Positions 2,579-61,769 of a stretch of 64,000 bases of DNA are shown here, piece after piece. The position numbers and the translations under genes are program-made. Source of the stretch: Candidatus Moraniibacteriota bacterium (GTDB lineage: Bacteria; Patescibacteriota; Minisyncoccia; Moranbacterales; UBA1568); NCBI GenBank assembly GCA_016699875.1, contig CP064989.1, forward strand, positions 392,788 to 456,787. Reading direction: 5' to 3'. Within the stretch, counting starts at the first letter, position 1. Every line of letters starts with the position of its first letter. Under the pieces are notes generated by a model. It did no database searches, was not told the origin of the DNA, and was given only the letters and a program-made list of their open reading frames with translations.

Positions 2579-3601
2579 CTACCTCCACCCCTGCCCGACA
2601 ATGCGCCAGACGATTTGTTCTTGTTGGACATTTACGACGCCGCCGGGAGTTTGTTGCGGGACGAGCTGCTGGAGTTTTTTGAATGCCAGAGAAATTCCGA
2701 AAGCGGCGCTTTTCTCGCGTGACTCGACAAAGGCAATGTTGTAGTCGCGCTGATTCTCGCTCCGCCCATCTATTTCCATTTCCGGATTCCACGGCTCGGT
2801 AAGATGCATATCGGCAGCATAGGACTCATAGAGCCGAGAGAGCCTCTCGGAAAGTTCCGACGCAGCATCAACAATCGTCGAGACGCTGAGATCCTCGCGC
2901 GCTTCTTTTCTCCCGATATAGTACTGATGCGAATAGAGTTTCTCCGTAAAGTGTTCGATAATGCTCGCAATCTTTTCTTTCGACATCGGGTGCGCGTGAC
3001 TCTTGAGCAGTCGCTCGGCAAGCACCTTGATGAGATTGTGCGTCCGATTCACATTGCCCAAGGCAAGCGGATGAATTGAGGGCGTCGCCTCCATGAATTT
3101 CATGAAGATATCCGCGAGTTTCTCGTCGCTCTTTACGCCAAATTTGTTCTTTGCAAGGTCAAAGTAGCTCATCACTTCTTCAACCGAAATCTGGATGCGT
3201 CCGTCCGGATTCTTGGGATCGGCGGGATTGAAAAAGTTCGATGTCGACGGATCGATCGGCGAAAGCTCGCTCATATCACTCATGACAATCTCATCCGCGC
3301 CGAGCGCAATCATCGTCGCCGCAGAGTGCGCTTTGTACGGCACAAGCACGCCGAATTCATCGCAGTATTCGCGTATCATCGAGACGAGCCGCCACGGCAC
3401 CATCGTGTCGCCGCCGGCGCTATAGAGCACGAGATCGATGCGCTTGACCTTTCCGATCGCGCGCAGTTGTTTGCTGACAATCGGAATGATATCCATCGCC
3501 ACCCGCGCATTGACCGGCCCCTGTCGATCACTCGTCACATATGCCACAACACGTGACCCTCGCAACATCTCTATCTCCTCGAAAATTTTTGAACGTTCCA
3601 T
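2579..3601 (-). CDS. ClpP/crotonase-fold serine protease, SDH (S49-like) family
   Basis: Internal ATG at 3601 (MERSKIFEEIEMLRGSRVVAYVTSD...). Motif LVLYSAGGDTMVPWRLVSMIREY...VLVPYKAHSAATMIALGADEIVM is typical of Clp-fold periplasmic serine proteases. Confidence 0.6.
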   Translation of the reverse strand: MERSKIFEEIEMLRGSRVVAYVTSDRQGPVNARVAMDIIPIVSKQLRAIGKVKRIDLVLYSAGGDTMVPWRLVSMIREYCDEFGVLVPYKAHSAATMIALGADEIVMSDMSELSPIDPSTSNFFNPADPKNPDGRIQISVEEVMSYFDLAKNKFGVKSDEKLADIFMKFMEATPSIHPLALGNVNRTHNLIKVLAERLLKSHAHPMSKEKIASIIEHFTEKLYSHQYYIGRKEAREDLSVSTIVDAASELSERLSRLYESYAADMHLTEPWNPEMEIDGRSENQRDYNIAFVESREKSAAFGISLAFKKLQQLVPQQTPGGVVNVQQEQIVWRIVGQGWR

Positions 3602-3729
3602 ATATATCTCGTGAATAAAAGAAATAGTCCTCGCAGTATACCGCGGAAGAAACCGCGAAACAAGACAAAAAGACAAGAGCGATACCCTAAAAGTACCGCT
3701 CTTGTTAATCGCTCTTTCCAAGTAAACGT

Positions 3730-4191
3730 TTACCGGCTCGTCATCACAGTGACACCGCCTTCGGCATTGCAGGCGCGAACGGTCACCATATTGTTAGAGT
3801 CTTTAACAATGGAATAGCCCGTGAGTGCCGCTGTACCGTTCGGATCGGTCGGAATGCTCTTCAGATAGCTCCCAAGTGCCGTCGAGAGATCGACGCAGTT
3901 GGTTGCACCCGCAACATTGCAGCCTCCGGTTGAAATAGCACATCCGGTTGTTGCTGTCCCGATTTGCATCTCCGTCGAAGTAATCGCCGCGGGGAAGATT
4001 CCCTTAGAATCGTTCACATACGTATGCACCGCTGAGAGAATATTTTGGATATCCGTCGTACGACGTGCATTTCGCGTATCTTGGAATCGCTTCGCCGGAT
4101 CAAGCGCAACGAATACCACTACCGCGAGCACCGCGAGCAAACCGATCACCAAGAGAATTTCCATGAGCGTAAACCCTTTCTGCTGCCTCAT
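3730..4191 (-). CDS. Type IV (major) pilin, class III signal peptide
   Basis: MRQQKG|FTLMEILLVIGLLAVLAVVVFVALDP: Gly-1, Phe+1, Glu+5 prepilin peptidase site and hydrophobic alpha1 helix. C-terminal Cys pairs (CAISTGGC, CVD...C) suggest a disulfide-bonded D-region. Confidence 0.8.
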   Translation of the reverse strand: MRQQKGFTLMEILLVIGLLAVLAVVVFVALDPAKRFQDTRNARRTTDIQNILSAVHTYVNDSKGIFPAAITSTEMQIGTATTGCAISTGGCNVAGATNCVDLSTALGSYLKSIPTDPNGTAALTGYSIVKDSNNMVTVRACNAEGGVTVMTSR

Positions 4192-4364: not shown

Positions 4365-4850
4365 TCAGCGCGAAACGGAAATATTCGTCCCCCCTTCTGC
4401 ACTACAGGCCTTTACAGTTACGATGCCATTCGTATCAACCACCACGGAATACCGCGTCAGCGCCACTGTTCCGCCATTCGGATCTTTTGGAATCGTTTTC
4501 AGATATTTGGCAAGTGTTGAAGAAAAATCAATGCAATCGGTATTGCCGGCAACCGCACATCCCCCTGTTGAGAGAGCACACCCCGGCCCCGTACCAAGTT
4601 GTTTCTCCGTTGTCGAGAGACCCGCAGGCATCGTCCCCTGGTTGTCCACTATGGAGGTCTGGATTGCCGAAAGAATCGACTGCACATCGGTCGCACGCTT
4701 CGCATCTCGCACATCTCGGAAGCGTTTTGCCGGGTCGAGCGCCACCAAAACAACGGTTGCCAATACAGCAATCATCCCGATAACCAAAAGAATCTCAAGC
4801 AGCGTAAACCCTCGAGCAGATTGCGTCGGTTTTCTCAGGAGATGCTCCAT
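4365..4850 (-). CDS. Type IV pilin paralogue (tandem duplicate of 3730-4191)
   Basis: ATG at 4850 gives MEHLLRKPTQSARG|FTLLEILLVIGMIAVLATVVLVALDPAKRF. About 60 percent identical to the neighbouring pilin along the whole length, including conserved Cys positions. Confidence 0.8.
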   Translation of the reverse strand: MEHLLRKPTQSARGFTLLEILLVIGMIAVLATVVLVALDPAKRFRDVRDAKRATDVQSILSAIQTSIVDNQGTMPAGLSTTEKQLGTGPGCALSTGGCAVAGNTDCIDFSSTLAKYLKTIPKDPNGGTVALTRYSVVVDTNGIVTVKACSAEGGTNISVSR

Positions 4851-4869: not shown

Positions 4870-6360
4870 TTACAACGAGTTCGAACTGTCTGCTCCAAGT
4901 ACGAGAATCACATCTTCATTGGAATCGTCCGGCATATCTCGACGGCGTTCAAGTGAAAAATTCAACCCGGCATTCGCCAAGAGTTCATCGAGAAATTCAT
5001 CTGGCACGGATTCTTTCGCACGAACAAACGAGACAGCGAAGCGCGACAACGCCGTACGAACCCCGGATATCACAAAGTCTTCTTCGGAAAGATCCTGTCC
5101 AAGATTCGATGCCGCCCCGGGAACACCGCTCCCATTTTCAATAGCTACACGAAAACTCCCATGAGTTATCTCCTCCGCATCCTCCAATGGCAAATCCCCA
5201 CCAGACAAAGAAGCTGTATCATCACCTTCCTTATCGACCGGAGGAGCATCTTCTATCAGAGGAGCTTCTGATTGTGGAAGAGGCGCCGAATCGAGTACTC
5301 CCGATGGCATTTCTTGCCGATTCCGCAGCATCACTGCAATAGCCCCGCCTCCTGCGAGGACAACCGCTACGAAAGCCACGGCAAGCACTTTGGTACGATT
5401 TGAGACGAGCGAATGAGATCGATCAGCCCCGGACGATCGACCGGCGGACACATGTTCATCAAGCTTGTGCAAACCGAATCGCTCAGATGTTTCCGACTCA
5501 GCATTGGCAGATTCTTTCTCATCATCCGGCGAATTTTCCTCCGCAATACTCAACTCGACGGAAAGAACTTCCGAATCCCTTCCGGATATATCTTTCTTCG
5601 ATGCAAGTCCGATCAAAGCATTCTTATCGGAGAATTCTATTGAAAACCCGGATTGTTCCGCTCGCGCCCGATCGAAATCTATTAAATCATTTTCCGTACA
5701 AGAACCAACAAAGATGATCTTCGAGGGAGAAAAATTGAACCGATCCTTCATAAACCGCCCGACCGTTTCCACTGTCTCAAATGTCAGTCCCTGAAGAGAA
5801 GTGGCACTCGAAAGCACAATGCCTTTCATCACACCGGCCACAAAGAAAAATCCGCTCTTGTATACCAAGAGTATCGGCTCTTCCCGATCCGAAAACAGCC
5901 TAGCCACTGCGCATGACTCCGGCAATGAGACCGGTATGCGAAAGCCCGCCTCACGAAGCGCTGGTATCACCACGCGGGCAAACGACGCCACCAATGACAC
6001 AACCTGCACCGGACGCCCGAGCGATGAATCAGGCAACAAAATTTCCTGGTAATCCCAGGCGCTCTCGGCGAGATTTTCCGGAATAAATTTCCCCGCAAGG
6101 TCTCGAACCGCGAGGCGCTCCCTCTCCGAAGAGGAGTAGGTTTCTCCCTGTGGCAAAAAAAGTGTCGCGACATAGGAAAACTGCTCACCAACCAAAAGCC
6201 GCACCGTGCGACCGACTGCCGCTCGAGCCGTTCCCAAAACGGAACCGATATTTTCCGTTGTCCACGAGAGATTCACCAGCTCTGTCACTTTTTCACCCTG
6301 AATCGAAAAGCCTCGAACAGCATTCGGGGTTATAAAAAGAATTCCTTTGGTATCAAACAT
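4870..6360 (-). CDS. PilM-like (actin-fold) pilus assembly protein with one TM helix and a C-terminal LytR_C-like domain
   Basis: N-terminus GILFITPNAVRGFSIQ resembles the PilM/FtsA-like start. Central acidic linker, TM segment VLAVAFVAVVLAGGGAIAV, then a C-terminal FRVAIENGSGVPGAASNLGQDL...ILVLGAD region resembling LytR_C. Domain assignment is by motif only. Confidence 0.45.
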   Translation of the reverse strand: MFDTKGILFITPNAVRGFSIQGEKVTELVNLSWTTENIGSVLGTARAAVGRTVRLLVGEQFSYVATLFLPQGETYSSSERERLAVRDLAGKFIPENLAESAWDYQEILLPDSSLGRPVQVVSLVASFARVVIPALREAGFRIPVSLPESCAVARLFSDREEPILLVYKSGFFFVAGVMKGIVLSSATSLQGLTFETVETVGRFMKDRFNFSPSKIIFVGSCTENDLIDFDRARAEQSGFSIEFSDKNALIGLASKKDISGRDSEVLSVELSIAEENSPDDEKESANAESETSERFGLHKLDEHVSAGRSSGADRSHSLVSNRTKVLAVAFVAVVLAGGGAIAVMLRNRQEMPSGVLDSAPLPQSEAPLIEDAPPVDKEGDDTASLSGGDLPLEDAEEITHGSFRVAIENGSGVPGAASNLGQDLSEEDFVISGVRTALSRFAVSFVRAKESVPDEFLDELLANAGLNFSLERRRDMPDDSNEDVILVLGADSSNSL

Positions 6361-6420
6361 AGGACGACAAACCTTGTACCTTTCAGTATACACCCTTCCG
6401 CGTACGAAAGACGAGCGATA

Positions 6421-6798
6421 CTATGGAACCGCATGCCAGCTCACCATCGTCACCCCCGAACTCGCCCGAGTAAAGATCACTTCCGCTGCCTGATCAAAAG
6501 ATCCGCCAGTTCGCACAGTCGCCGTCCACTGACTTCCCGATTTCGAAATTGTCGCCACACAAGACCCCTCCGGACGCGCAATAGTCCCGCCGGCGTAGGA
6601 ATCGCTCCCTCGCGAAAAGAGCAGCATATCTTCGATGCATCCGTCGAGCATATCGCGAGCTTCCATTCCTTCAGAAATTGCGAAGGATGTCTGTGCATTG
6701 CCAACCGAAAGAATAGTAACCGTCACCCCGAGCGCAAGTGACACTGCGAGAAGAATAAACACCATGGAGAGAACGATGAAACCGCGAGACTGCCGCAT
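6421..6798 (-). CDS. Minor pilin / pseudopilin-like protein lacking Glu+5
   Basis: ATG at 6798: MRQSRG|FIVLSMVFILLAVSLALGV. Prepilin-type leader and hydrophobic helix with Ser at +5, as in PilX/ComGF-type minor pilins. Confidence 0.55.
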   Translation of the reverse strand: MRQSRGFIVLSMVFILLAVSLALGVTVTILSVGNAQTSFAISEGMEARDMLDGCIEDMLLFSRGSDSYAGGTIARPEGSCVATISKSGSQWTATVRTGGSFDQAAEVIFTRASSGVTMVSWHAVP

Positions 6799-6811: not shown

Positions 6812-7366
6812 TTAAAGCGGGTTTGATCGAAGTTCGGCAGAAGATCGGAGAGCGGTCGAGCTCGCATATTCAAAGCGATTCCCCGAGGATACCGTCCTAA
6901 GCATGATTTCGAAACCGATATTCTTTGAATTTCCATCAGATGAAGAGGCATTGATAAATACAAGAGAACTCACCGCAACATTCGTCGACGTCAACTCAAC
7001 AGGCGCCGAGGCGCCGACAGCAACCCGAAGCATCCTATTCGCAACATCGACCACAATCGGCGTATTCGGAGCAACTCCCTGAAGCGTCAGCTTCGATCCG
7101 GGAACCTCTGCCAAATTCACGCCGAAATTCGAATTCGCCGTATCGACGTCCGTCGCTTCTCGAATAAAGAAAGCAATCTTTTCAGATGCCAACCGCACAT
7201 TTGAAACAGCATCATTGTGTGTTCCGTTCTTAGCACCAATACCGATCATATTCCACCCAAACGCAACGAGCGATGTCAGAACAATCCCGGCGACACCGAC
7301 ATAGAGCAACATCTCTATGAGCGTAAATCCTTGCTGCCTCCGGATTCTTCCCGAAAATATCATCAT
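6812..7366 (-). CDS. Minor pilin, prepilin-type N-terminal cleavage/methylation domain
   Basis: MMIFSGRIRRQQG|FTLIEMLLYVGVAGIVLTSLVAFGW with Glu+5. Confidence 0.7.
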   Translation of the reverse strand: MMIFSGRIRRQQGFTLIEMLLYVGVAGIVLTSLVAFGWNMIGIGAKNGTHNDAVSNVRLASEKIAFFIREATDVDTANSNFGVNLAEVPGSKLTLQGVAPNTPIVVDVANRMLRVAVGASAPVELTSTNVAVSSLVFINASSSDGNSKNIGFEIMLRTVSSGNRFEYASSTALRSSAELRSNPL

Positions 7367-7383: not shown

Positions 7384-8844
7384 CTACGGCGCAAACACAA
7401 CAAACTCCCCTGTGTTGGAAGCACTGGCACCAAGTACCTGGTCCAATGTATCACTATACGCAATGCCAAGAAGATCGGTGTTGCCGGAAACATCCACGGA
7501 ACTAACAATAGAAGGAGATGTCGGCGAGGAAATATCCACCACTTGAAATTCAGCTGAATTGCTGCTCGTCGCCAAGAAAGCAAGTGTATTGGAATTTCCA
7601 AACGTGAGCGCGATATCATTCACCGTATCTGACACGTTGACGGAACCAAGAAGCGAGGGGCTTCCCGGATTCGAAACGTTCACTGTGTATAAAGCATTCC
7701 CTCGCCCCACCAAGAGTGTCGTCCCCGCAAGCGACACCGTCGTCGCGTCGGTCGTTCCAGAAAGGTTGAGCGCTCCCACAAGAGACGGCGAGGATGGTAT
7801 TGCAATATTCACCACTTGTACTTCCCGCGTATCATTCGCCGATGCCACAGAGGCGAAGTTCCCCGAAACAACCACTTCATTTCCACTATCGCCGAGATTC
7901 ATTGAGCCGACCAGAACCGGCGAATTCGGCGTCGAAACATTTGCAATAACAAACTCATCATCCGAACCGATTGCTCGAACCACATATGCCGTTGCACCAA
8001 CCAAGAAAACACCAAGAGCATCTTCCGTACCGGGAGCATTGAGCATACCAACAACACTCGGTGAAGACGGCACGGCTATGTCCACCACTTGCAACTCTTG
8101 GTTATTGTTTTTGTTCGAAATAACCGCAATCCCGCCGGAAATAGAAATATCCGTTGGCGTTCCTGTCATTGCCAGGGACCCGACTATCATTGGATTCGAT
8201 GGATTACTCACATCAAAGATTAAGAAATTCGGACTCCCGCTCGGACGAATCATATAGGCGAAATTTCCCTGCGTTTGCATTCTAATGCCATCATTCGTTC
8301 CGGACACATCCACACTCGCAACCTGTGTCGGATTCATCCAACTGCCACCACTGCTTATTGGTAAACGCCAATCGTCAAGATACGATACAAATGAAACCGT
8401 ACTTGTTCGCGCCGCCGTAACCGGCCACGTCACCGTCGACGTCACTTTCCGACTCAAAGGATCGTTTGTTCCGCCACTCGAGACAATATTCCCACTGCCA
8501 TCGCGAGCAACCGGTGCCACCGATATCGTTCGCACATATTTCCCATAGGAGGTCGACGTGCCCGAAAATGCCCACGTACCTCCGGACCCTACACGATCAA
8601 TACCGGAAGTAGCTGTTGTTCCGAGCGACGCAAACGATTGATTCTTCATCGATCGAAGAGCCTCTATCCCTTCGTTCGCGTAATTCGACGCAATGCTTTC
8701 TTCTTCCGCAAGTCGATCCGCATCAAGTCCCTGCAAGAGGAGCGCGATCGATCCTGACGCGAACACCGCAAAAAGCGCCGCGCCGAGCAACACCTCGACA
8801 ACGGAAAACGCGCGAACGCAAACAGCTCGTTTCCAAATATCCAT
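7384..8844 (-). CDS. Pilin-anchored LVIVD-repeat (beta-propeller) protein, putative pilus-tip adhesin
   Basis: ATG at 8844: MDIWKRAVCVRA|FSVVEVLLGAALFAVFASGSIALLL (pilin-like helix, Glu+5). This is followed by about 9 repeats of the form ..FxxVSNPSxPxxVGSxxxxGxxxDIxxxGxxAxV.. (e.g. LQVVDIAVPSSPSVVGML, VQVVNIAIPSSPSLVGAL, FQVVDISSPTSPSIVSSV), characteristic of LVIVD repeats. Confidence 0.6.
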   Translation of the reverse strand: MDIWKRAVCVRAFSVVEVLLGAALFAVFASGSIALLLQGLDADRLAEEESIASNYANEGIEALRSMKNQSFASLGTTATSGIDRVGSGGTWAFSGTSTSYGKYVRTISVAPVARDGSGNIVSSGGTNDPLSRKVTSTVTWPVTAARTSTVSFVSYLDDWRLPISSGGSWMNPTQVASVDVSGTNDGIRMQTQGNFAYMIRPSGSPNFLIFDVSNPSNPMIVGSLAMTGTPTDISISGGIAVISNKNNNQELQVVDIAVPSSPSVVGMLNAPGTEDALGVFLVGATAYVVRAIGSDDEFVIANVSTPNSPVLVGSMNLGDSGNEVVVSGNFASVASANDTREVQVVNIAIPSSPSLVGALNLSGTTDATTVSLAGTTLLVGRGNALYTVNVSNPGSPSLLGSVNVSDTVNDIALTFGNSNTLAFLATSSNSAEFQVVDISSPTSPSIVSSVDVSGNTDLLGIAYSDTLDQVLGASASNTGEFVVFAP

Positions 8845-8875
8845 ATTCGTCCCTATTGTACCATGAAGGAGAACG

Positions 8876-9622
8876 CTATCCCGTCCAATCAAGAAAACTT
8901 TTGAGCGCGCGACGAAGCGAGATAGCCGTCTCGCGATCAACAGAGAGCTTCGGAAGCGAAGTCAGTGAATTTACAAACAAGAGTCGCAAGAATTTCACGG
9001 CATTTTCCCCGAACGGAAGAGTGAGACGCGCTCCCTCCCGATGACGCGAGCACACAATGCCGCCAAGATCCGGACTAAAACAATATCGCTCGCCCGCCAC
9101 CAAAGACTCCTGTCCTGCTGCGCATCGACGCACTTCAATACGATAGCCGAGCCGATCAAGAAACTTCCAGAGAAACCCCTGCGAAAGCAGAAATACTTTC
9201 TCAGAAAATCGAGATACTTCATCACTCCCCTGCCGCGGCAATGCACTCACAATCTCAAGTGCTCGCAAGAATCCCAGAAGCAGCAAAAAAACTTCCGCAT
9301 CCACTTCGCCATCCTCCATGCGCCGATCAATGATAGATACCGCTTCGAGTGCTGTTCGAAGCGACACCTCATCTCTCCGTATATGTGGAAACATATTCTC
9401 CACAACCGCACTCGAGATATTCCCCCGCCCGCGGCTCCGCGCAATCGAAAGATCAATCAGCGAAAGCGTCTCCAAGTGCCCTGCAAGCTTCGCGGCTGGT
9501 TTCCGCGATCCGCGCCCCATCGCTTTCACCTTTCCTCCTTCCTGCGTGAAGAATGTATACAGCCGATCCGTCTCGCCGATATCCCGTTTCCCAAGCACGA
9601 TAGCAGTATAAGAGAAGTCCAT
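8876..9622 (-). CDS. recO: DNA repair protein RecO
   Basis: ATG at 9622: MDFSYTAIVLGKRDIGETDRLYTFFTQEGGKVKAMGRGSRKP, a RecO N-terminal OB-fold signature; length about 248 aa. Confidence 0.8.
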   Translation of the reverse strand: MDFSYTAIVLGKRDIGETDRLYTFFTQEGGKVKAMGRGSRKPAAKLAGHLETLSLIDLSIARSRGRGNISSAVVENMFPHIRRDEVSLRTALEAVSIIDRRMEDGEVDAEVFLLLLGFLRALEIVSALPRQGSDEVSRFSEKVFLLSQGFLWKFLDRLGYRIEVRRCAAGQESLVAGERYCFSPDLGGIVCSRHREGARLTLPFGENAVKFLRLLFVNSLTSLPKLSVDRETAISLRRALKSFLDWTG

Positions 9623-9662
9623 GGAAAAAAGAATTCGGAATAAAGAAGGAAGAAGTAGGAAA

Positions 9663-10196
9663 TTACGAATCACCGAGAAAGCTCATCGCTTTTCCCAGAA
9701 TTTCTTCATGTGATACCGACGTATCGAGAAAGATTTTCCTTCCCGGTATACACTCATAATCAAAATCTTCGTCTCCGAAGTTTGTTTTCAGTTCTAAACG
9801 TTTCTGATCGTGATGCGCGTCATGTCTCGGACGCTCTCGCATTCTTCGCATTCGTTCCTCTGTATGCACCAAACACACAATACTCTTTACCTCTACACCA
9901 TATTCATCAATCCATCGTTTAAATGTCTTTGGGTTATCCGGGTGATTGAACGGGCTTTCCAGAATAATATCCACCCCATTCCGGACCATGTCTTCCCCGA
10001 TCGCGAGAAGAAGTTGTATTGATATTCGGCCAAAGAGTTTACTTTCCTCCAGCGTCTTCCCATCAAGAAAATCATACAGTCGTTCTTTGATTGCATCCTT
10101 GTGCAGACAAACGATATGTAACTTCCGAGAAAGTTCCGCCGCAAGCGTCGTTTTTCCAGACCCAGGCAATCCGCACACAACAATTAATTTACTCAT
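9663..10196 (-). CDS. P-loop NTPase / AAA_33-like kinase family protein
   Basis: MSKLIVVCGLPGSGKTTLAAELSRKL Walker A; about 177 aa. Start ATG overlaps the ileS stop (ATGA). Confidence 0.6.
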   Translation of the reverse strand: MSKLIVVCGLPGSGKTTLAAELSRKLHIVCLHKDAIKERLYDFLDGKTLEESKLFGRISIQLLLAIGEDMVRNGVDIILESPFNHPDNPKTFKRWIDEYGVEVKSIVCLVHTEERMRRMRERPRHDAHHDQKRLELKTNFGDEDFDYECIPGRKIFLDTSVSHEEILGKAMSFLGDS

Positions 10197-13100
10197 ACCC
10201 GTTTCAGCCAAAAATGAAATACCCCTCCTTCAATCTTCACTTCCTCCGAATATTCAGAATTGGCAACTTCACCCTGCTTCACTTCCGTCGCCAATACCTC
10301 CCGCGCGATCATGTCTTGGAATCCGGAAATATTCTTCGACGCATCACCTTCAAACACCTCCTTCTTCCCATCATACCCAAGCACAATTCTGTCCTCCACA
10401 TTGAATCCCGCCTTCTTTCGCCCCTCCTGAATCGCCCGAATAATCTCCCTCGCCTCGCCTTCGAGCTTGAGTTCGGGAGTGATGTTAGTGTCCACAACTA
10501 CCACTGGATTATTTATATACGCCCTAGCCGAGACAACATTCACGTGAACAACAACATCAACACATTTAGCATTCAGTTCATCAGCTATAATAGCTTTGAA
10601 TTCTTGCGTCAGATTCATCTCAATTTCCGCCTTAACATTAGATATGGGCTGCCTCACCTTTATCTTCGCTTCCGCACGTTTCAAAAGTCCCACACTGACA
10701 ATCTCGCGAACCAATCTCATGTCTGTATTCAGTTTCTCATCAACCAAACCTTCATTCACTTCCGGAAAATCCGCCAAATGCACCGACTGTTCTCCGGTAA
10801 GATTCCGATACAACTCTTCCGCAATAAACGGCGTGAACGGCGCCAAGAGTTTCGAAAGCGTCACCAAAACATCATAGAGCGTTTGATACGCTTGTTCCTT
10901 ATCAACGTCATTTTCATTCTTCCAGAAGCGTTTTCTCGAACGACGAATGTACCAATTGGAAAGCTGATCAAGGAATACCTCTACTTTCTGCGTCGCCCCG
11001 TACACATCATACATTCCAAGTGCTCCATCAACATCGCGGATCACAAGTTGCAATTCGGAGAGAATCCACCGATCCATCACATTCGAAGCATTGAAATCGG
11101 AAGTGGAGCGATTTGGCTTCCAATTATCGACACTTGCGTAGGTTACAAAGAAGAGATACGAATTCCAGAGCATACGGAAGACGCGATTTTGTACATCGCG
11201 CATGCCTTTCACATCGAAGCGCTTTGGAAGTCCAGGCTGGTTGAGCGAGAACAAGAGCCAGCGAAGCGCGTCCGCGCCGTACTGATCAAACATCTCAAAC
11301 GGATCAACGATATTCCCCTTCGACTTCGACATCTTCTTGCCCTTCGAATCGAGAATATGCCCGAGACAGATCACGTTCTTGTACGCACGGTGTTCTTTCA
11401 CGATGCTCGCCTTTGCCAAGAGATTCTCGACCGCATGAAGCGTATAGAACCACCCGCGCGTCTGATCGATCGCTTCGCAGATATAGTCCGCCGGAAATGT
11501 TTTTCCGGTTTCGATATTTTTCTTTTCTTCGCCACTTGTCGATGCCGGATAGCCAAATTGCGCCAGAGGCATCGCGCCAGAGTCGAACCACACGTCCAAC
11601 ACTTCCGGCGTCCGGCGCATCGTACTACCGCACTCGCACGAAAACTCAACCTCGTCGATATACGGTTTGTGCAAATCATCGAGTTTCTTTCCGGAAAGTT
11701 TTTCCAATTCGGAGACAGATTCGATCACTCTCATTTTTCCGCACGACGCCGACTCGCACACCCAAATAGGAAGCGGCGTCCCCCAATACCGCTCACGCGA
11801 AATCGCCCAGTCCTTCACGCCTCGCAACCACTCGCCAAAGCGACCGTCTTTGATATGTTCCGGCACCCAATTGATCGATTCATTTCCTTTCGAGAGTTCC
11901 TCCCGCAATTCCGACATGCGGATAAACCACGAGGGCTTCGCATAATAGATAAGCGGCGTATCGCATCGCCAGCAGAACGGATACTCGTGTTCGTACGGTT
12001 CTTCCTTGAAAAGCAGTCCGCGATTCTTCAAATCTTCAATCACCAAGTCATCCACCGCGTATCGATTCTTGTCATTCATTTTCTTCACCGGAATCCCTTC
12101 ACACGCCGGAAGACCGAATCCTTTCTTCATCGTTCCATCTGTTTCAACCGTCAGCAGTGTTGGCAGATCATTCTCCCTCGCCACATTTGCATCATCTTCC
12201 CCGAACGCCGGCGCGATATGCACGATTCCTGTTCCTGAATCCGTCGTCACAAAATCTCCTGCAACGACCTTGAAACTTTTCTTCACATCTTCTTCTCCTG
12301 CAACATGAAAGAGTGGTTCATATCTAATTCCAATAAGACTCTTTGCCTTTATTCTTGTACCTGATGGAGACTCATAGCGGAAACCGCTACGCCCGGTCTT
12401 ACTAATATAGTCAGATTGTTCTTTAGAAATATATCCTCCTTCTTTTTTTCCAAGATTCAACAAAAATTCTTGCGAAAGAATGAGATATTCACTCTCACAG
12501 CCTTCTATAATTGATTCTTTCTTTTCTGCATCGTCCCACCATTTCAAGTATTCCCCATTGGGCGATCGTGAAAATTTCAAGACACGATATTCGGAATCCT
12601 CATTCACCGCGAGCGCCACATTTCCCGGCAACGTCCATGGCGTCGTCGTCCAGGCGAGAAAATACGTTTTATCATCCGTCGTAAAGTCGCCGATTTTCTG
12701 TCCGGGTATTGCTTTGAATTTCACATACACGGAGTTATCTGTCGTTTCTTTGTACCCTTGCGCCACTTCGTGCGACGAGAGCGCTGTCCCACATCGGTAA
12801 CAATACGGCACCACCTTGTGTCCCTTATAAATAAATGACTCGCCTTTTGCATTCTTCAATTTCGCAATCTGCGCAAGTTGCCACCAGAGCGACTCGATAT
12901 AGCTGTTCTCATAGGTGACATACGGGTGCTCCATATCCACCCAGTAGCCCATCCGCCGCGTGAGCTTCTCCCACAAGTCACGATACTCCCACACGCTTTC
13001 TTTGCATTTCTTATTAAACTCAATCACGCTCGCGCGCGCATCGCCCGGCACGATACTTTCGATCTCCTGTTTGTTCTTCAATCCCAAAGCCTTCTCCACC

Positions 13101-15310: not shown

Positions 15311-15337
15311 CTCGGGTCTGATCCCTATTCATTTCTG

Positions 15338-15409
15338 TAGCCTCAAGGGGAATCGAACCCCTCTTTTCAGGATGAGAACCTGATGTCCTAACCGATAGAC
15401 GATGAGGCC
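15338..15409 (-). tRNA. tRNA-Glu (anticodon CUC)
   Basis: Minus strand: GGCCTCATCGTCTATCGGTTAGGACATCAGGTTCTCATCCTGAAAAGAGGGGTTCGATTCCCCTTGAGGCTA. Cloverleaf with anticodon stem TCAGG/CCTGA and loop TTCTCAT; no encoded CCA. Confidence 0.85.
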
Positions 15410-15425
15410 AAAACGATACTCTCGG

Positions 15426-15496
15426 CAGGAGCGGAAGGAATCGAACCTTCACCGCTGGTTTTGGAGACCAGCATTCTACCACTAAACTACGCTCCC
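15426..15496 (-). tRNA. tRNA-Trp (anticodon CCA)
   Basis: Minus strand: GGGAGCGTAGTTTAGTGGTAGAATGCTGGTCTCCAAAACCAGCGGTGAAGGTTCGATTCCTTCCGCTCCTG. Anticodon loop CTCCAAA; close to the E. coli tRNA-Trp pattern. Confidence 0.85.
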
Positions 15497-15511
15497 GAAG
15501 CAAGGGAAACC

Positions 15512-15652
15512 CTACTTCGACTCCGTTTGCAAAGTATGCTTTCGACACGATTTGCAAAACTTCTGAAGCGACAGCTTCTCCTTTACCTTCTTCTTATTCC
15601 GCTTCGTATACCCGACAATCTTCTTGCACTCGCTGCAACGAAGCTTCACCAT
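15512..15652 (-). CDS. rpmG: 50S ribosomal protein L33 (zinc-ribbon type)
   Basis: MVKLRCSECKKIVGYTKRNKKKVKEKLSLQKFCKSCRKHTLQTESK with CxxC...CxxC. AAGGA Shine-Dalgarno 6 nt upstream of the ATG at 15652. Confidence 0.85.
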   Translation of the reverse strand: MVKLRCSECKKIVGYTKRNKKKVKEKLSLQKFCKSCRKHTLQTESK

Positions 15653-15702
15653 ATTTTCCTTAATCGCACCCATAACGCATATCTTAAAATATTCTCTACC
15701 TG

Positions 15703-15775
15703 AGCCGTTGACCGGAATCGGACCGGTGACCTTCTCCTTACCATGGAGATGCTCTACCGACTGAGCTACAACGGC
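15703..15775 (-). tRNA. tRNA-Thr (anticodon GGU)
   Basis: Minus strand: GCCGTTGTAGCTCAGTCGGTAGAGCATCTCCATGGTAAGGAGAAGGTCACCGGTCCGATTCCGGTCAACGGCT. Anticodon loop ATGGTAA; T-loop TCCGATT. Confidence 0.8.
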
Positions 15776-15822
15776 CGCGCGCCTCAAATCTCTGAAAACG
15801 GAGACACCTCCAGAAAACCCTG

Positions 15823-15905
15823 TGGGCAGGGAGGGATTCGAACCCCCGTAGACCGAAGTCGGCAGATTTACAGTCTGCTGCGATTGACCGCTCCGCCACC
15901 TACCC
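15823..15905 (-). tRNA. tRNA-Tyr (anticodon GUA), long variable arm
   Basis: Minus strand: GGGTAGGTGGCGGAGCGGTCAATCGCAGCAGACTGTAAATCTGCCGACTTCGGTCTACGGGGGTTCGAATCCCTCCCTGCCCA. Anticodon loop CTGTAAA; variable-arm hairpin CGACTTCGGTCTAC. Confidence 0.85.
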
Positions 15906-15955
15906 AATACGGCAATGTACTTTCATTCGACAATATTCTCTTCTCTCCCCGGCAG

Positions 15956-16029
15956 AGCCTGAGGTCGGATTCGAACCGACGACCTGCTGTTTACAAAACA
16001 GCTGCTCTAACCAACTGAGCTACTCAGGC
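15956..16029 (-). tRNA. tRNA-Thr (anticodon UGU)
   Basis: Minus strand: GCCTGAGTAGCTCAGTTGGTTAGAGCAGCTGTTTTGTAAACAGCAGGTCGTCGGTTCGAATCCGACCTCAGGCT. Anticodon stem GCTGT/ACAGC, loop TTTGTAA. Confidence 0.85.
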
Positions 16030-55765: not shown

Positions 55766-57394
55766 TTAACGGGGATCATTCACATCGGTAATTACGCCGG
55801 AAAGATATTCCGGCTTCAGTTCGTACACATCCGCAAACGGATAGTGATCAACCAATCGGTATCCTTCCAGAAAACCGACATTGTCCTTAAGAAGCCTCCA
55901 GGTCGAGTCACTATCAGAATTACTGCGCACTACGATCCACCTTGCCCAGTTATCCGGATCCTGAATAGCGCTCTCGTAATACGATCCTGTTCCCTCGTGA
56001 ATAAATCGACCCATAGGCAAACCCGAGGAGAAAATAACCGAATCATGCGAAGCGGCGGAAATGAGAATATACCCCTTTTGCTGTCCGGCATTGTCGCGAA
56101 GCCATGCTGCAACTTCCGTCACATTCTTCTGGCTCGCCCCGGTTCGTCCATCGTCAATCGTCACCGCATCCTGACTCGAAAACTGAAAGAACAGCACAAA
56201 GAGAAGCGTCCCAATCAAGACCGGTCGAACCGGCACCGCCCGATGAACAAGATAGCCGACAAAAACCGCGACCGAAGCCATCATGAGAATTCCATAGCGC
56301 ACATTGAACCACGTATCGCCAGAAAGCCCTTGAATAAACAATACGGAATGGCCCAAGTAGAGGGCGAGAATATTGAAGAGAAGCGGCGCAAAGAGCGCAA
56401 GCGATGCAAACCGAGCACGAGAATCTATCTTCCGATCGAAAAAGAAAATGCACGCTCCAATCGCCCCAAGCAACAACACAAACGTATCTGTATTGTACGC
56501 CAAGGCGTAAAAGTACATCTTTACCGAAAGAAACCAGCTCCCTTTGGTAAGCAACACGCCCGCCGCCGCCAAATCATCTTGCTGCGCATGCGCCGAATAG
56601 GGACCGAACGCAAAATAGAGCGGATCGCCGAAAATAAGGAGGTTCCACAAGAGCCAGAGAAACACCCCGAACCCGGCAAGCGTTGCAAAGAGCACGAATG
56701 TCCCCTCAGCTTTCCGATATCCGCCCGACTTCCACGCAGAGACAAATAGCATGAGAGATGCGAAGAAGAAAAGAAACCATCCATCATACCGAATCAGCGT
56801 CGAAAACATGACAAACAAGGCGGAGAGCAAAAGAAACGGAAGTCTCCTGCGCGTATACCACAAGAGCAGAAAATACGATGCTGCCATGGTAGTGCCAATC
56901 AGTGCGAGTTCAGTCATCGCTGTCGACTGGAGATACAGTATGTTCAAATTCGCCGCAAAGACAATGACGCCCACATACCGTCCCAAAAGTCCCACGCCAA
57001 CCTCACGCAAAAAGAGAAAGAGCAGAACACCTGTAGCCACATAGGCAATCATTGACCAGAGTGCGCCGGCAAGTCCGGAGTGCCACATGAAATCATTCCA
57101 AATCGTGAGCGCCATGAGAAGGTGCGTAAATGGTAGCCACACGCTCCCCAACTGCGCAAACCCCGGACGAAGCCCCTCTACTACACGCCGACCGATATCG
57201 AGATGCGAGCGAGCATCGTTATAGGCGAGTCCCAAACCATTGTGGTAGTACTGCGCAAATGCCCACACGGAAACAGCCGAGAGCATACTTACCACAATCG
57301 CTGTCCCATGTCTATCAAAAAAAAGCCGAAGCGATTCCACGCGCTCTCTGGACACGGAGAAAATCGAGAATGTTTTGTTCAAAGAGTATTTCAT
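55766..57394 (-). CDS. GT-C-fold polytopic membrane glycosyltransferase (ArnT/PMT-like, GT39/83-type)
   Basis: About 13 predicted TM helices in the first 400 aa followed by a soluble C-terminal domain; architecture of dolichyl/undecaprenyl-phosphate-sugar-dependent glycosyltransferases. Confidence 0.55.
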   Translation of the reverse strand: MKYSLNKTFSIFSVSRERVESLRLFFDRHGTAIVVSMLSAVSVWAFAQYYHNGLGLAYNDARSHLDIGRRVVEGLRPGFAQLGSVWLPFTHLLMALTIWNDFMWHSGLAGALWSMIAYVATGVLLFLFLREVGVGLLGRYVGVIVFAANLNILYLQSTAMTELALIGTTMAASYFLLLWYTRRRLPFLLLSALFVMFSTLIRYDGWFLFFFASLMLFVSAWKSGGYRKAEGTFVLFATLAGFGVFLWLLWNLLIFGDPLYFAFGPYSAHAQQDDLAAAGVLLTKGSWFLSVKMYFYALAYNTDTFVLLLGAIGACIFFFDRKIDSRARFASLALFAPLLFNILALYLGHSVLFIQGLSGDTWFNVRYGILMMASVAVFVGYLVHRAVPVRPVLIGTLLFVLFFQFSSQDAVTIDDGRTGASQKNVTEVAAWLRDNAGQQKGYILISAASHDSVIFSSGLPMGRFIHEGTGSYYESAIQDPDNWARWIVVRSNSDSDSTWRLLKDNVGFLEGYRLVDHYPFADVYELKPEYLSGVITDVNDPR

Positions 57395-58986
57395 AGACGC
57401 TTTTTCTCAAGAAGACTCTCCCGAACCAGTCCGACAAATAACAGCCCGGATCCGAACACGAGCAGAACTACTATCCCCCAATAATATTGCTCGGCACTCA
57501 CATATCGATGTACCCACGCCCGATAAAGAAACGACTTCGAACCGCTCTCGCGCAAATAATCCCAATTCCGCTCAGCGGTATATTTCTCAACCCTTCCGGA
57601 CAACGCCTCTATCGAGAGCACCTCGTGCTCCGGAGGATTCGCATTTGAGGTAATCGCCCCAAGCGTATTCACCGACATCGAATATGCCAAAACAACAAAG
57701 AATGCTCCCAGAAAAAAGAAGTTCTTGCGCCACTCGGTAAGTGCGATACCAATGCCAATACCAAGAACCGCATAACTCGGGATAAGATATCGCGATCCGA
57801 ACGCCCACCCACCCCACGGGTCACCCCACATTGAGTAAAGCAGAAGATTAATCATGACTGTTGCAATCAGAACATTTGCTACGCCGTATTTATCCTGCCT
57901 TCGAGCGAGAAACACCAAACCAAAGACGCCAAACAATATGACCGGTGCATAGAAGATCACCCCGCGATCTGAACTCACAAGATGTGTCAACAGTCCCTGT
58001 AAAAGATCCCGGGTTTTGAAGAATCCAACCGCAGATTTCGCCTCATTTCCGTTAACACCATCAATAGATGCCGCTTCCAAATCGCGAGATATAGCCTGTC
58101 CATCTGCTGAAAGCTCTGTCACGGCTGGCAACGTTCCCGAAAGCTTCAACGCACCGCCATTCACTGTCGAGTTATACCACAAGAACCCCGCCAGCGGCAC
58201 CACAAGCACAAGGAGACTCGCAACAAGAACCGGGCGAAACATAACCCGAATCTTTTCCCCAATAGAAACAAACATAATCCTGGAAACTGCAAACACACCA
58301 ATAGGTGCCAAGAGAAAGAAATTCGGATTATCGACACTCACAGACAATGACACGCAAAACCATATAGCAACAAGCGACCGCCACCCGCTCGAGCGAAGAA
58401 GCAAAAGAAGCGAAACAAGCAATAGAAAAACTGTTATATGATGCTGGTAGAGTGTCGTCCCGTACGCAAACGCTGGTGTCCCGAAAAGAAAAGCGAGCGA
58501 TCCGAGCGAAGCTGCCAGCGGACGCGCACCAAGCCGAAGCGCAATCGATCGCACCAGCCAAGCATTCAATAGCGCAAACAAAGCAATCATTGAAAACGCC
58601 CCGACTTGCGAAGCACCAAGCCACTTCCCTAAAAGATATCCCGGAGCAACCAAAAGAGACACCGTCGGCGCAAAAAGCGACGCATATCGACCGTCGGGAG
58701 TCAATCCCAAGTCCGGCGTTACAGATCGCGCCACCGGAAGAGAAAAGAAGAACGAGTGATCTTCAATCACCGAGTAAAGCAACGCGAATCGTCCGCGTTC
58801 GGGAGAGAGCTCGAGTGGTCCACCTTTCCGCCACTCAGCAGTATTCAAATCGCCCGATGTTGGGTTCCCGGGCAACCCACGCAAAGAGAGAGCGAAAATA
58901 ATCACCGAGAAGAGAATAAAGCCACCCACTATGACTAGATTATTTCCCCGAACTAATGAGAGAATTCTTTTCATACAAGAGAACAT
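57391..58986 (-). CDS. Second GT-C-fold membrane glycosyltransferase (ArnT-like)
   Basis: Polytopic; start overlaps the previous gene's stop (ATGA); similar hydropathy architecture; tandem to 55766-57394. Confidence 0.55.
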   Translation of the reverse strand: MFSCMKRILSLVRGNNLVIVGGFILFSVIIFALSLRGLPGNPTSGDLNTAEWRKGGPLELSPERGRFALLYSVIEDHSFFFSLPVARSVTPDLGLTPDGRYASLFAPTVSLLVAPGYLLGKWLGASQVGAFSMIALFALLNAWLVRSIALRLGARPLAASLGSLAFLFGTPAFAYGTTLYQHHITVFLLLVSLLLLLRSSGWRSLVAIWFCVSLSVSVDNPNFFLLAPIGVFAVSRIMFVSIGEKIRVMFRPVLVASLLVLVVPLAGFLWYNSTVNGGALKLSGTLPAVTELSADGQAISRDLEAASIDGVNGNEAKSAVGFFKTRDLLQGLLTHLVSSDRGVIFYAPVILFGVFGLVFLARRQDKYGVANVLIATVMINLLLYSMWGDPWGGWAFGSRYLIPSYAVLGIGIGIALTEWRKNFFFLGAFFVVLAYSMSVNTLGAITSNANPPEHEVLSIEALSGRVEKYTAERNWDYLRESGSKSFLYRAWVHRYVSAEQYYWGIVVLLVFGSGLLFVGLVRESLLEKKRL

Positions 58987-58989: not shown

Positions 58990-60195
58990 TTATCGACACT
59001 GCAAAAGAATTCGTTCATAAAATTTTTCAACCAAGCGAGCAAGGTCATCCCAAGAATGTCCGACAGTAAAAGCAATATTTCGCTTGCGAATCGCCTCTAC
59101 ATCGGCATTCCCCTTATTCTCTACAAGGAAACCAATTCTATCGGCAACGCTATTCGCATCCTGCACTGGAACAACATATCCATTAACACCGTCCTTAATA
59201 AGCTCCTCAAGCGCTGTGTCTTTAGCAACAATACAGATACAACCCTGACTCATAGATTCATGCACCGCGTTGCAATAACTCTCCCATGATGCCATGTGTG
59301 TATTTGCAAGAGAATGTCGAAGTAAATAATACTTATCAATTCCATCTACCACACCAAGAAATCGGACCCGATCAACAACACCGAGTCTTTGTATCTCTTC
59401 ATCAAGAAGCCGTTTGTAATCGGGATCGGTCACAGGACCAACAATAGCAAATATAACTCCCGAAACTTTTGCTACAGCTCGAATAGTCGTAAGTTGATTT
59501 TTTATAGGATGGACGCGCCCAACCTGCACAACATATGTCCCCAAGTCACGAACAAGTGAACGAACAGATTCACTTGCCAACCCCTCAATATCCGAATAAA
59601 CTTCTCGTTCAATCCCATTCGGGATTGTCTCTATAATTTCACGACGGACGCCACTCTTCACTGTTTCCTCACTCTCCCATTCGGAAACAGATCGAAGTCC
59701 GTCCACGGCGTGGTTTATTAGAAAAGTACCGATATATTTTTGATATAAACGCTTCATTACTCTCTGAAACGGAGTAAATGTCCACCAACCAGGAGTATAG
59801 CCTCCGTGAGGAATAAGAAAGATGGCGCGACGCATTCGAGAGAATCTTCTCAAAAAAAGTACCTTCACAAGAATCCAACTATGCGGAAATACATTGAAGT
59901 TGTGAAGACAAATAGAACCGGGACGATTCCAGTCTATTTCGGGAACAAACCCATACCACCGCCATTTGTATCTTCGTATGGAGAGGCCACGAATTTCGCC
60001 TTTGGGAGGGAGTATTTCTGAGGAATTTGGAACACTCGTTGAAGTATGAATGACTACTTCCCATCCCTGCTGAGCAAGATAAGAATAAATATTCAATATA
60101 TTTGTCTCAATCCCGGCAACAACGGGATAGAAGAACTTTACAACAACATCGAGTCGCTTTTCTTCCGGTGAGAGCTTCTGAGATTCTGTGTTCAT
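58990..60195 (-). CDS. Glycosyltransferase family 4 (GT-B, Glycos_transf_1)
   Basis: C-terminal E..G.P.I.....G pattern: ...VHESMSQGCICIVAKDTALEELIKDGVNGYVV. Confidence 0.7.
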   Translation of the reverse strand: MNTESQKLSPEEKRLDVVVKFFYPVVAGIETNILNIYSYLAQQGWEVVIHTSTSVPNSSEILPPKGEIRGLSIRRYKWRWYGFVPEIDWNRPGSICLHNFNVFPHSWILVKVLFLRRFSRMRRAIFLIPHGGYTPGWWTFTPFQRVMKRLYQKYIGTFLINHAVDGLRSVSEWESEETVKSGVRREIIETIPNGIEREVYSDIEGLASESVRSLVRDLGTYVVQVGRVHPIKNQLTTIRAVAKVSGVIFAIVGPVTDPDYKRLLDEEIQRLGVVDRVRFLGVVDGIDKYYLLRHSLANTHMASWESYCNAVHESMSQGCICIVAKDTALEELIKDGVNGYVVPVQDANSVADRIGFLVENKGNADVEAIRKRNIAFTVGHSWDDLARLVEKFYERILLQCR

Positions 60196-60215
60196 ACGAG
60201 AGATATTGAGAAAAA

Positions 60216-60932: not shown

Positions 60933-60941
60933 AATCTGTTT

Positions 60942-61760: not shown

Positions 61761-61769
61761 AAGAAATCC

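Follow-up and report, generated by a model that had tools for sequence, protein, structure and literature searches.

The gene under study lies on the minus strand (7384..8844, read from 8844 to 7384) of the window, that is, the whole 64-kb stretch of DNA that was analysed, and encodes a modular minor pilin of 486 amino acids plus a stop codon, in which a GspI/PilV/ComGE-type module, as judged from sequence, is joined to an LVIVD propeller. Its ATG start codon is located 29 bp past the stop codon of recO, which occupies the place where an H-type pilin gene sits in the family at large. An in-frame TTG at 8940 was considered as an alternative start and rejected, because it would overlap recO and because orthologues start near the ATG. 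Decay into a pseudogene, which the alanine at position -1 of the prepilin site might suggest, was also dismissed: the reading frame is intact, 75-80% orthologues share its synteny, and Ala at -1 is found again in distant lineages.

The genes that follow are encoded on the same strand. The next one (6812..7366, minus strand) specifies a 184-aa minor pilin of the GspJ/PilW/ComGF type, with the motif GFTLIE and a match to Pfam N_methyl, and the one after it (6421..6798, minus strand) a 125-aa pilin-like protein (RG before and FIVLS after the putative cleavage site) that has no Glu at +5 and represents a candidate cap subunit of the GspK/PilX/ComGG type. Also inside the pilin cluster is a gene for a 507-aa protein (4870..6393, minus strand) that has a single predicted membrane segment and, at its C-terminus, a LytR_C domain (Pfam, E=5.1e-6). 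A LytR_C protein is present at the same place in the orthologous locus L001 and in another locus, L002; the window protein had no match among solved structures, and a PilM-like identity was not shown. Two major-pilin-like genes complete the set, one (4365..4850, minus strand) encoding 161 aa from Met17 of the listed reading frame (GFTLLE), with N_methyl and GspH/GspG-type N-terminal matches, and the other (3730..4191, minus strand) encoding 153 aa (GFTLME), with an N_methyl match (E=9e-7) and a GspG-type match. They are paralogues, and their orthologues in L001 are likewise 161 aa and 153 aa long. Scans for promoters and terminators between 3.5 and 10 kb gave nothing clearly over shuffled expectation that would delimit an operon.

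Neither PilB nor PilC was found in the 64-kb window, and the same was true of L001. The window copy is part of a second pilin cluster, located behind recO and without motor genes. In L001 and L002, too, recO lies upstream on the same strand, and it is not adjacent to the copies in main operons.

Pilin module, linker and LVIVD propeller

The protein consists of four parts, namely a leader, a prepilin helix with a beta-sheet head, a linker and an LVIVD propeller, and the full-length AF2 model (pLDDT 91.6) places a helix at residues 15-67, a sheet at 80-156 and the propeller at 173-485. The leader peptide, read from the sequence (residues 1-12, MDIWKRAVCVRA; 8809..8844, minus strand), is basic and ends with Ala at -1, and the mature protein would begin with FSVVEVLLGAALFAVFASGSIALLLQGL, with Phe at +1 and Glu at +5 (E17). 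A stretch of 23 uncharged residues follows this Glu, so that the N-terminus agrees with the features expected of prepilins and their class III signal peptides (a short basic leader, a motif within the first 35 residues and at least 14 uncharged residues after it). The junction of MDIWKRAVCVRA with FSVVE fits the prepilin-peptidase motif [GAS]-x4-[DE], in which Ala at -1 is allowed (PMC3244431), and prepilin peptidase would cut after Ala12. Neither Pfam N_methyl (PF07963) nor TIGR02532 was matched by the window protein at E<=0.1; among the 101 aligned homologues, 61 match PF07963 and 31 match TIGR02532. For the sequence-only reading, a plain signal anchor with no prepilin site in orthologues would have spoken against a pilin, but such a site is general in them: E17 is invariant in 101 of 101 homologues, position -1 is Gly or Ala throughout, and most members have the canonical site with Gly at -1 followed by F-x-x-x-E. 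Ala at -1 occurs in 8 of 80 genome loci (~10%) and also in homologues P0002, P0005, P0015, P0019, P0034, P0048 and P0088.

The mature N-terminus and long alpha1 helix cover residues 13-67 (8644..8808, minus strand); the predicted helix has 53 residues (15-67), with pLDDT mostly 94-95 and lower values at both ends. It is followed by the pilin head (residues 68-160; 8365..8643, minus strand), a small antiparallel beta-sheet packed on alpha1, whose strands fall within 80-156 in both AF2 models, including that of the pilin module alone (pLDDT 89.2; helix 15-69 and a 5-6-stranded sheet). A Foldseek search of the pilin-module model against the PDB gave nothing significant (best E=0.13; EpsI E=1.5). 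Profile matches of this module are weak but consistent: among the 101 members, ComGE was matched by 56, XpsI by 33, PilV by 25 and GspI by 17, with the best matches of homologues reaching E ~1e-8, and the PilV score of the window protein (16.6 bits) is far below the curated cut-off of 52.2. Together with the position in the gene order, the conserved Glu+5 and the J- and K-type genes that come next, these matches suggest a carrier of the GspI/PilV/ComGE-like class, although that of the window protein stays under the curated cut-off and classical members of this class have only ~100-140 aa and no extra domain. The linker between pilin module and propeller (residues 161-172; 8329..8364, minus strand) is short and modelled with low confidence (pLDDT falls to 66 at residues 161-170); it is the least conserved mature region, with an all-pairs identity of 0.32, and is possibly flexible.

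The rest of the protein (residues 173-486; 7387..8328, minus strand) is assigned to a seven-bladed LVIVD beta-propeller by the AF2 model, the repeats and Foldseek. Pfam LVIVD (PF08309) matches the window protein with 76 bits (cut-off 20.2; E=1.3e-21), as well as all 101 homologues. Six complete repeats occupy residues 187-455, and a C-terminal partial repeat (456-486) is completed by the N-terminal strand 173-178, forming a 'velcro' blade 7. When residues 230-274 were used as the repeat unit and compared with 200 shuffled sequences, the five other copies scored 49-116, and the best shuffled scores had a mean of 34, a standard deviation of 5 and a maximum of 53, which puts four of the five copies above every shuffle and leaves the weakest (49) within their range. 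The AF2 propeller contains 28 strands, that is, seven blades of four, with pLDDT 95-98 except for one block of 10 residues, and a Foldseek search retrieved generic seven-bladed propellers (E from 1.8e-13 to 1e-10). The repeats are therefore predicted to fold into a closed seven-bladed propeller. About 45 invariant or near-invariant positions in the homologue alignment are Gly, Pro, Tyr, Glu or Ala and recur once per blade, as is typical of a structural repeat, and neither His nor Cys is found among them.

Sequence, Pfam and AF2 agree on the central proposal of the sequence-only reading, a pilin N-terminus with Ala at -1 and Glu at +5 fused covalently to an LVIVD propeller, and the repeats do model as the propeller that it anticipated (seven four-stranded blades, residues 173-485); its count of about nine repeats has to be lowered to six complete and one split, which make seven blades. 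Proteins with the same 42-45-residue repeat (PF08309) were earlier described as surface proteins with a predicted beta-propeller located on the cell surface (Adindla et al. 2004), but those, such as the ones at L072 and L085, are large archaeal or bacterial proteins that carry no pilin module.

Conservation and operon slot in Patescibacteria

More than 350 full-length homologues were collected, and the family spans at least 458 species-level genomes, almost all of them from Patescibacteria; the search for loci across genomes used a 30-sequence subset of the 101-sequence alignment. At informative loci, the upstream neighbours included PilB (49 of 50), PilC (49 of 50) and a GspH-like pilin (46 of 50), and a J-type and a K-type pilin gene lay downstream at 58 of 58 and 56 of 58 loci, respectively. 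The order is fixed: a response regulator, a PilB-like ATPase, a PilC-like platform protein, a GspH/ComGD-like pilin and the propeller pilin are followed by a GspJ/ComGF-like pilin, a GspK/ComGG-like pilin without Glu+5, and then the major pilin or pilins. The link to type IV pili that had been proposed is well borne out by this embedding in type IV pilus operons. The position of the gene as first in its cluster, from which a priming or tip subunit had been expected, applies to the window only. In the family as a whole the propeller pilin comes second among four minor-pilin genes, and the ATPase and platform genes precede it.

The H, J and K classes of these neighbours were assigned by NCBIfam and Pfam scans of individual members. 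Among the J-type proteins, 22 of 35 matched PRK10557, 20 of 35 matched ComGF, and all 35 have Glu+5; among the K-type proteins Glu+5 is found in none of 40, with weak matches to ComGG (6 of 40) and PilX_N (3 of 40). When profiles of the three neighbouring pilin families were compared with sequences of solved structures, only the shared N-terminal helix was matched, which left the three classes unassigned by this route. Because the propeller pilin retains Glu+5 and its K-type neighbour does not, the propeller pilin is probably not the topmost subunit of the filament.

All-pairs identity is about equal in the two modules (0.43 for the propeller, 0.45 for the pilin head), and the propeller keeps ~43% identity across classes. 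Among paralogues within one genome, the propeller is even better conserved than the pilin module. It had been suggested that orthologues might vary mostly in the propeller, as host-specificity determinants would; this is not borne out as a rule, and the idea of the propeller as a hypervariable determinant of host range was rejected, since a propeller roughly as conserved as the pilin head does not show the pattern of a fast-evolving host-specificity determinant.

Relation to known systems and possible function

Modular pilins, in which a short linker connects an N-terminal pilin module with a large functional one, have been surveyed by Raynaud et al. (2021, PNAS, PMC8179133) and predicted to be exposed at the pilus tip, with the vWA module of PilB and the lectin module of PilC in S. 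sanguinis as examples. The window protein has the domain layout of a modular pilin in this sense, according to its AF2 model. Dataset S1 of that survey lists architectures with IPR012902 and IPR013211 (LVIVD) for ~30 proteins, one of which, from a Candidatus Falkowbacteria organism, has at least 12 LVIVD copies; the motif was termed 'of unknown function' and left unanalysed (PMC8179133). The architecture is already catalogued and the design as such is not novel, but the window protein itself is new, and what is added here to that list is a complete predicted seven-bladed propeller, a GspI/ComGE-type carrier and a gene position that stays the same across at least 458 Patescibacteria species.

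The closest experimental parallel is PilX2 of Nanosynbacter lyticus TM7x (Saccharibacteria), a propeller-bearing minor pilin that is needed for efficient host binding and not for filament extrusion (PMC11623550). The two proteins belong to the same phylum, and both are minor pilins with a C-terminal heptabladed propeller and a non-canonical signal peptide; in each case the gene shares a motor-less pilin cluster with that of a major pilin. The likeness is drawn from the published description, in which the propeller of PilX2 is composed of RCC1 repeats rather than the LVIVD repeats found here, and the name PilX2 was assigned arbitrarily. The motor-less locus three of TM7x comprises pilA2 and pilX2, whose assembly is thought to use machinery encoded elsewhere. 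By analogy, the set in the window (I-, J- and K-type minor pilins, the LytR_C membrane protein and the two major-pilin paralogues) would presumably be assembled in the same manner.

PilY1/PilC of type IVa pili also combines a propeller of about seven blades, a tip and priming complex with four minor pilins, and a role in adhesion. However, it is a non-pilin protein that docks onto the K-type minor pilin by beta-strand augmentation with a 12-residue C-terminal plug, whereas here the propeller is covalently attached to an I-type pilin and the C-terminus is the last strand of the propeller. PilY1/PilC models (Neisseria_PilC/IPR008707) did not match the window protein or any of the 101 homologues at E<=0.01, and PilY1 was absent from the top 50 Foldseek matches. 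The description 'PilY1-like' in the sequence-only reading cannot be kept as a statement of homology; the propeller pilin is an analogue of PilY1, not a homologue, and the covalent fusion forms a counterpart to a protein whose only attachment to the tip is its 12-residue plug.

Considering all of these observations, the protein probably serves a Patescibacteria type IV pilus as a modular minor pilin, with a tip-displayed propeller that acts as a binding module, likely for the host surface; the organism itself is probably related to Candidatus Moraniibacteriota. The pilin module would join the other minor pilins in a complex that primes assembly and later caps the filament, and the propeller would be shown at or just below the pilus tip, where it would do the job of the separate PilY1/PilC protein in classical type IVa pili. 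Its ligand would most likely be a component of the host-cell surface.

The same architecture and tip location might also belong to a Com-like DNA-uptake filament, whose propeller would capture extracellular DNA instead of a host surface. The order of the ATPase, platform, D/H, E/I, F/J and G/K genes mirrors comGA, comGB, comGD, comGE, comGF and comGG, the best family matches are ComGD, ComGE, ComGF and ComGG, and a propeller so well conserved from class to class would suit a universal ligand. The position of recO immediately upstream on the same strand, both here and in L001/L002, points in the same direction, as does the presence of recA/recX in one type IV pilus locus of TM7x. Patescibacteria are also generally described as unable to synthesize nucleotides and as probable scavengers of DNA. 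Such a function is nevertheless considered unlikely, since the main-operon copies have no adjacent recO, a DNA-binding signature was not found in the protein, and PilX2, the one propeller pilin of this phylum that has been studied experimentally, affects host binding.

It is still less probable that the propeller never reaches an extended filament and is held at the cell surface, either with the helix acting as a signal anchor or on a short pseudopilus. The Ala at -1, the absence of an N_methyl match in the window protein, the lack of motor genes in the window and the occurrence of LVIVD propellers in large non-pilin surface proteins (L072, L085) would be compatible with this; however, a plain anchor would need neither the invariant Glu+5 nor Gly or Ala at -1, the family holds a fixed slot among minor pilins beside PilB/PilC, and Ala at -1 is within the accepted cleavage motif and recurrent in distant lineages. 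An enzyme, such as a hydrolase, delivered by the pilus against the host envelope is highly improbable: the top Foldseek match is a propeller phosphotriesterase (5hrm, E=1.8e-13), a few members weakly match SBP56/methanethiol oxidase and lactonase-type NosZ, and modular pilins with peptidase modules are known (PMC8179133), but identity to 5hrm is just 11-13%, WD40 scaffolds score alike, and the lack of His and Cys at conserved positions led to the rejection of an enzymatic role.

A broader version of the favoured reading, a tip-displayed binding module on a minor pilin, may be put forward tentatively and with considerable doubt: the LVIVD propeller on a GspI/ComGE-type pilin might be an ancestral, phylum-wide tip device that replaces PilY1 and recognizes a universal ligand. 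If so, the conservation of the propeller across classes and between paralogues would mean that this ligand is not a receptor specific to one host but, for example, DNA or a glycan common to cell envelopes, and the device would offer a general handle on the first contact of epibionts with prey or nutrients.

Patescibacteria are tiny, mostly uncultured, and represent a large share of bacterial diversity; every member in culture lives, to our knowledge, in attachment to other microbes, and among the contact devices of these bacteria type IV pili have the best support. Pilins have been reported as poorly conserved across this phylum, to which the LVIVD-propeller pilins form an exception, with an easily recognised and presumably surface-exposed module in a fixed slot in hundreds of species. 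If the propeller is a binding module at the tip, it would provide a common target for experimental work on how hosts are recognised or DNA is captured and for antibodies or labels on uncultured cells, and would open the exchange of adhesive modules on an unchanging pilin carrier to comparative study. The same pilin module is found at the same operon position either alone or with other C-terminal modules.

Operon slot and a second pilin set

The window gene, which encodes a pilin module fused to an LVIVD propeller, is a 486-codon ORF on the minus strand (8844..7384) with its ATG at 8844, 29 bp after the stop of recO (8876..9673, minus strand; Pfam RecO_N and RecO_C). A longer, TTG-initiated form overlaps recO and was without support from homologues. 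Neighbours of the family were scored in 85 related loci with HMMs from three annotated loci. A PilB-like ATPase and a PilC-like platform gene were each detected upstream in 49 of the 50 loci with at least 4.5 kb of upstream sequence, and a ~150-aa pilin directly upstream in 46 of them; downstream, a ~175-aa pilin and a ~135-aa pilin-like protein were present in 58 and 56, respectively, of the 58 loci with at least 1.5 kb.

Classes were called member by member by NCBIfam and Pfam scans. The best matches were GspH (28/32) and ComGD (27/32) for the upstream pilin, ComGE (56/101), XpsI (33), PilV (25) and GspI (17) for the pilin module of the LVIVD protein, PRK10557 (22/35) and ComGF (20/35) for the first downstream pilin and, weakly, ComGG (6/40) and PilX_N (3/40) for the second downstream protein; matches of all four classes fall short of curated cut-offs, and the pilin module, modelled on its own with AlphaFold2 (pLDDT 89.2), had no significant counterpart in Foldseek, so that the assignment rests on consistent weak matches and synteny. 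Glu+5 was found in 31 of 32 upstream pilins, all 101 LVIVD pilins and all 35 first downstream pilins, and in none of 40 second downstream proteins. GspK-type cap subunits of T2SS and T4P minor pilins lack Glu+5, a pattern that the second downstream protein follows. Based on class matches, Glu+5 pattern and synteny, the gene order is ATPase, platform, H, I, J, K and major pilins, parallel to comGA-GB-GD-GE-GF-GG and gspE-F-H-I-J-K, with the I slot held by the propeller protein.

The sole exception to this synteny is L001, a locus with an orthologue of the window gene; in the window, L001 and the shorter orthologous contig L002, the gene is preceded by recO. In all three it is followed by genes for a J-type pilin (in the window at 7366..6812, minus strand) and a K-type protein (6798..6421, minus strand), and further on by a pair of major-pilin-like paralogues (4850..4365 and 4191..3730, minus strand). 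As the same Moraniibacteria genome as L001 has a main-operon copy beside PilB/PilC (P0006) and no ATPase or platform gene occurs anywhere within the 64-kb window, the recO-associated cluster is a second, motor-less pilin set, resembling locus three of TM7x (Saccharibacteria), which encodes PilA2 and the propeller pilin PilX2. All three also carry, at the junction of minor and major pilins, a gene for a 507-aa membrane protein (in the window at 6393..4870, minus strand) with one predicted membrane segment and a C-terminal LytR_C domain, whose N-terminal ~330 residues have no family match; it may act in alignment (PilM/N-like), a role for which no supporting family or solved-structure match was found. 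A gene for a ClpP-like SDH-type serine protease (2579-3721, minus strand; Pfam PF01972, E=6e-16) comes next after the pilin cluster, and L001 and L002 have this gene too.

Modular pilins and a probable tip complex

Modular pilins, in which a functional module is grafted on a pilin and predicted to be exposed at the tip, were described by Raynaud et al. 2021, whose Dataset S1 contains ~30 proteins (8+8+7+4+1+1+1) in which one to thirteen IPR013211 motifs come after IPR012902; a Falkowbacteria protein was highlighted and the motif labelled "of unknown function" (PMC8179133). IPR013211 is the LVIVD repeat, and a full-text literature search for LVIVD together with pilin returned a single paper, on an unrelated subject. 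TM7x has the minor pilin PilX2, whose signal peptide is non-canonical and whose C-terminal heptabladed propeller is described as RCC1 repeats; efficient binding to the host depends on it, whereas filament extrusion does not (PMC11623550). Given this listing and the PilX2 precedent, the architecture is already catalogued, and the window protein is a new, uncharacterised member of this established type. The sequence-only reading had proposed a PilY1-like tip adhesin, which holds as an analogy and fails as homology, PilY1 being absent from the top 50 Foldseek matches of the full-length model against the PDB; classical PilC/PilY1 differs in being a non-pilin, which a 12-residue plug attaches to the K-type minor pilin.

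It is reasonably probable that the window protein is a modular pilin of the tip complex. It would join its two neighbours of J and K type, and an H-type pilin from another locus, in a priming or tip complex and display the propeller as a binding module. Its probable place is directly beneath the cap and not the extreme end, since it keeps the Glu+5 that its K-type neighbour lacks. By analogy with TM7x, a host envelope component would be the favoured ligand. Capture of DNA by the propeller is unlikely, yet a serious alternative, since the operon order is Com-like and recO lies next to the gene. One TM7x pilus locus carries recA/recX, and such adjacency, as that of recO, may hint at a link of pili with DNA uptake or recombination.

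Prepilin signal across the family

As a pilin of the tip complex, the window protein would be cleaved by the peptidase after Ala12. Its N-terminus reads MDIWKRAVCVRA/FSVVEVLLGAALFAVFASGSIALLLQGL (slash, predicted cleavage point), with a basic leader of 12 residues, Ala rather than Gly at -1 as noticed earlier, Phe at +1, Glu at +5 and 23 uncharged residues thereafter, and agrees with the published prepilin-peptidase motif, [GAS]-x4-[DE] with a stretch of 14 or more uncharged residues behind it; according to the same paper (PMC3244431), PilD cuts at either Gly or Ala.

A search of 5.8 billion proteins gave 351 matches among the candidates scored, most of them full-length (450-495 aa) and from metagenome-assembled genomes of Patescibacteria (Moraniibacteria, Parcubacteria group), and a few of them with the JGI labels PilV or prepilin-type protein. 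The closest are 75-80% identical and include one from the complete Candidatus Moraniibacteriota genome CP064974. Among GTDB species-representative genomes, a single scan confirmed at least 458 relatives, which among the matches listed span Paceibacteria, Uhr-, Jackson-, Taylor-, Staskawicz-, Terry-, Falkow-, Morani-, Dojka-, Woyke-, Berkel-, Peregrini- and Peribacteria, Gracilibacteria and Saccharimonadales. Nearly all matches of the protein search carry G/F-[SGT]-[LVI]-[VI]-E at the N-terminus; Glu+5 is invariant among the 101 aligned members, 61 of which match Pfam N_methyl. That orthologues keep the peptidase site argues against a plain signal-anchor, and a membrane-anchored protein outside any filament is improbable. 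Ala at -1 is shared with the nearest relatives P0002 and P0005 (Gly in P0001 and P0003) and reappears independently in the distant homologues P0015, P0019, P0034, P0048 and P0088 and in 8 of 80 genome loci (Ser in one). Giant proteins that are not pilins and have many LVIVD repeats were observed in a Bdellovibrionales MAG (L072; 3802 and 1854 aa) and a Methanomethylovorans MAG (L085; 1460 and 1138 aa); the propeller module thus exists outside pilins and outside Patescibacteria.

Predicted propeller fold, module exchange and variation

Pfam detects LVIVD repeats in the window protein at 76 bits (gathering cut-off 20.2; E=1.3e-21). Iterative local alignment with residues 230-274 as the query unit recovered five further copies (scores 49-116), of which four exceed the best match in each of 200 shuffled sequences (mean 34, sd 5, maximum 53) and the weakest (49) lies within the shuffle range. 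Six complete repeats span residues 187-455, accompanied by a partial unit (456-486) and a lone matching strand (171-183). AlphaFold2 with the 101-sequence alignment (mean pLDDT 91.6, pTM 0.74) predicted one helix (15-67), a beta-sheet (80-156), a fall of pLDDT to 66 across residues 161-170, and 28 strands arranged as seven four-stranded blades, the last completed by strand 173-178. The propeller expected earlier is thus reproduced, and repeat count and blade layout together indicate a predicted seven-bladed fold with velcro closure instead of about nine repeats. In the PDB, Foldseek matched generic seven-bladed propellers at 8-15% identity, including many WD40 proteins and, at the top, Sphingobium phosphotriesterase 5hrm (E=1.8e-13). 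Gly, Pro, Tyr, Glu and Ala, each recurring once per blade, make up the conserved positions of the propeller, and the family alignment has no conserved His or Cys in the propeller, which argues against a metallo-enzyme like 5hrm and makes an enzymatic propeller highly implausible.

The pilin module (55-67% identity) keeps the same operon slot across several protein forms. It is bare in L068, L070, L071, L082 and L084 (186-215 aa) and bears other C-terminal parts in L058 (418 aa), L073 and L077 (577 aa) and L081 (589 aa), with match regions near position 8000 of these loci; the parts have no Pfam match and are uncharacterised, putative alternative tip modules. Longer forms with more LVIVD repeats in L021 (803 aa) and L056 (973 aa) probably comprise two tandem propellers, and the L028 protein (954 aa) combines the propeller with fibronectin-III domains. 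In two loci, L041 (11360-14296, 978 aa) and L083 (7923-9863, 646 aa), the propeller is carried by a K-type pilin (ComGG/PilX-like, without Glu+5) rather than an I-type one; grafting of this module has therefore involved more than one minor-pilin carrier.

The suggestion that orthologues vary mostly in the propeller was not borne out in general. Identity over all family pairs was 0.43 for the propeller versus 0.45 for alpha1N, 0.53 for alpha1C and 0.45 for the head; between the window protein and its three close orthologues it was 0.72-0.79 versus 0.81-0.83 for the pilin module, and between two paralogues of one Moraniibacteria genome 0.56 versus 0.40. L041 also encodes two I-type LVIVD pilins in tandem (7974-10879), the one case seen with a clearly faster diverging propeller (0.51 versus 0.73). 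By these four comparisons, the propeller is not hypervariable as a rule.

Elsewhere in the window, a pair of neighbouring ORFs (542 and 531 aa; 55766-58986, minus strand) without Pfam match sits within a gene cluster for glycosyltransferase, polysaccharide deacetylase and methyltransferase (58990-63997). A cluster of five tRNA genes (Glu, Trp, Thr, Tyr, Thr; 15337-16029, minus strand) includes among them an ORF (15512-15907, minus strand) in which a stretch resembling ribosomal protein L33 was recognised by eye, and an L33 gene occupies the corresponding region of L001. All 2-kb bins of 1-64000 have negative GC skew (cumulative -4.87 over 64 kb), and long ORFs lie mostly on the minus strand, which would fit one replication arm seen from its lagging-strand side.
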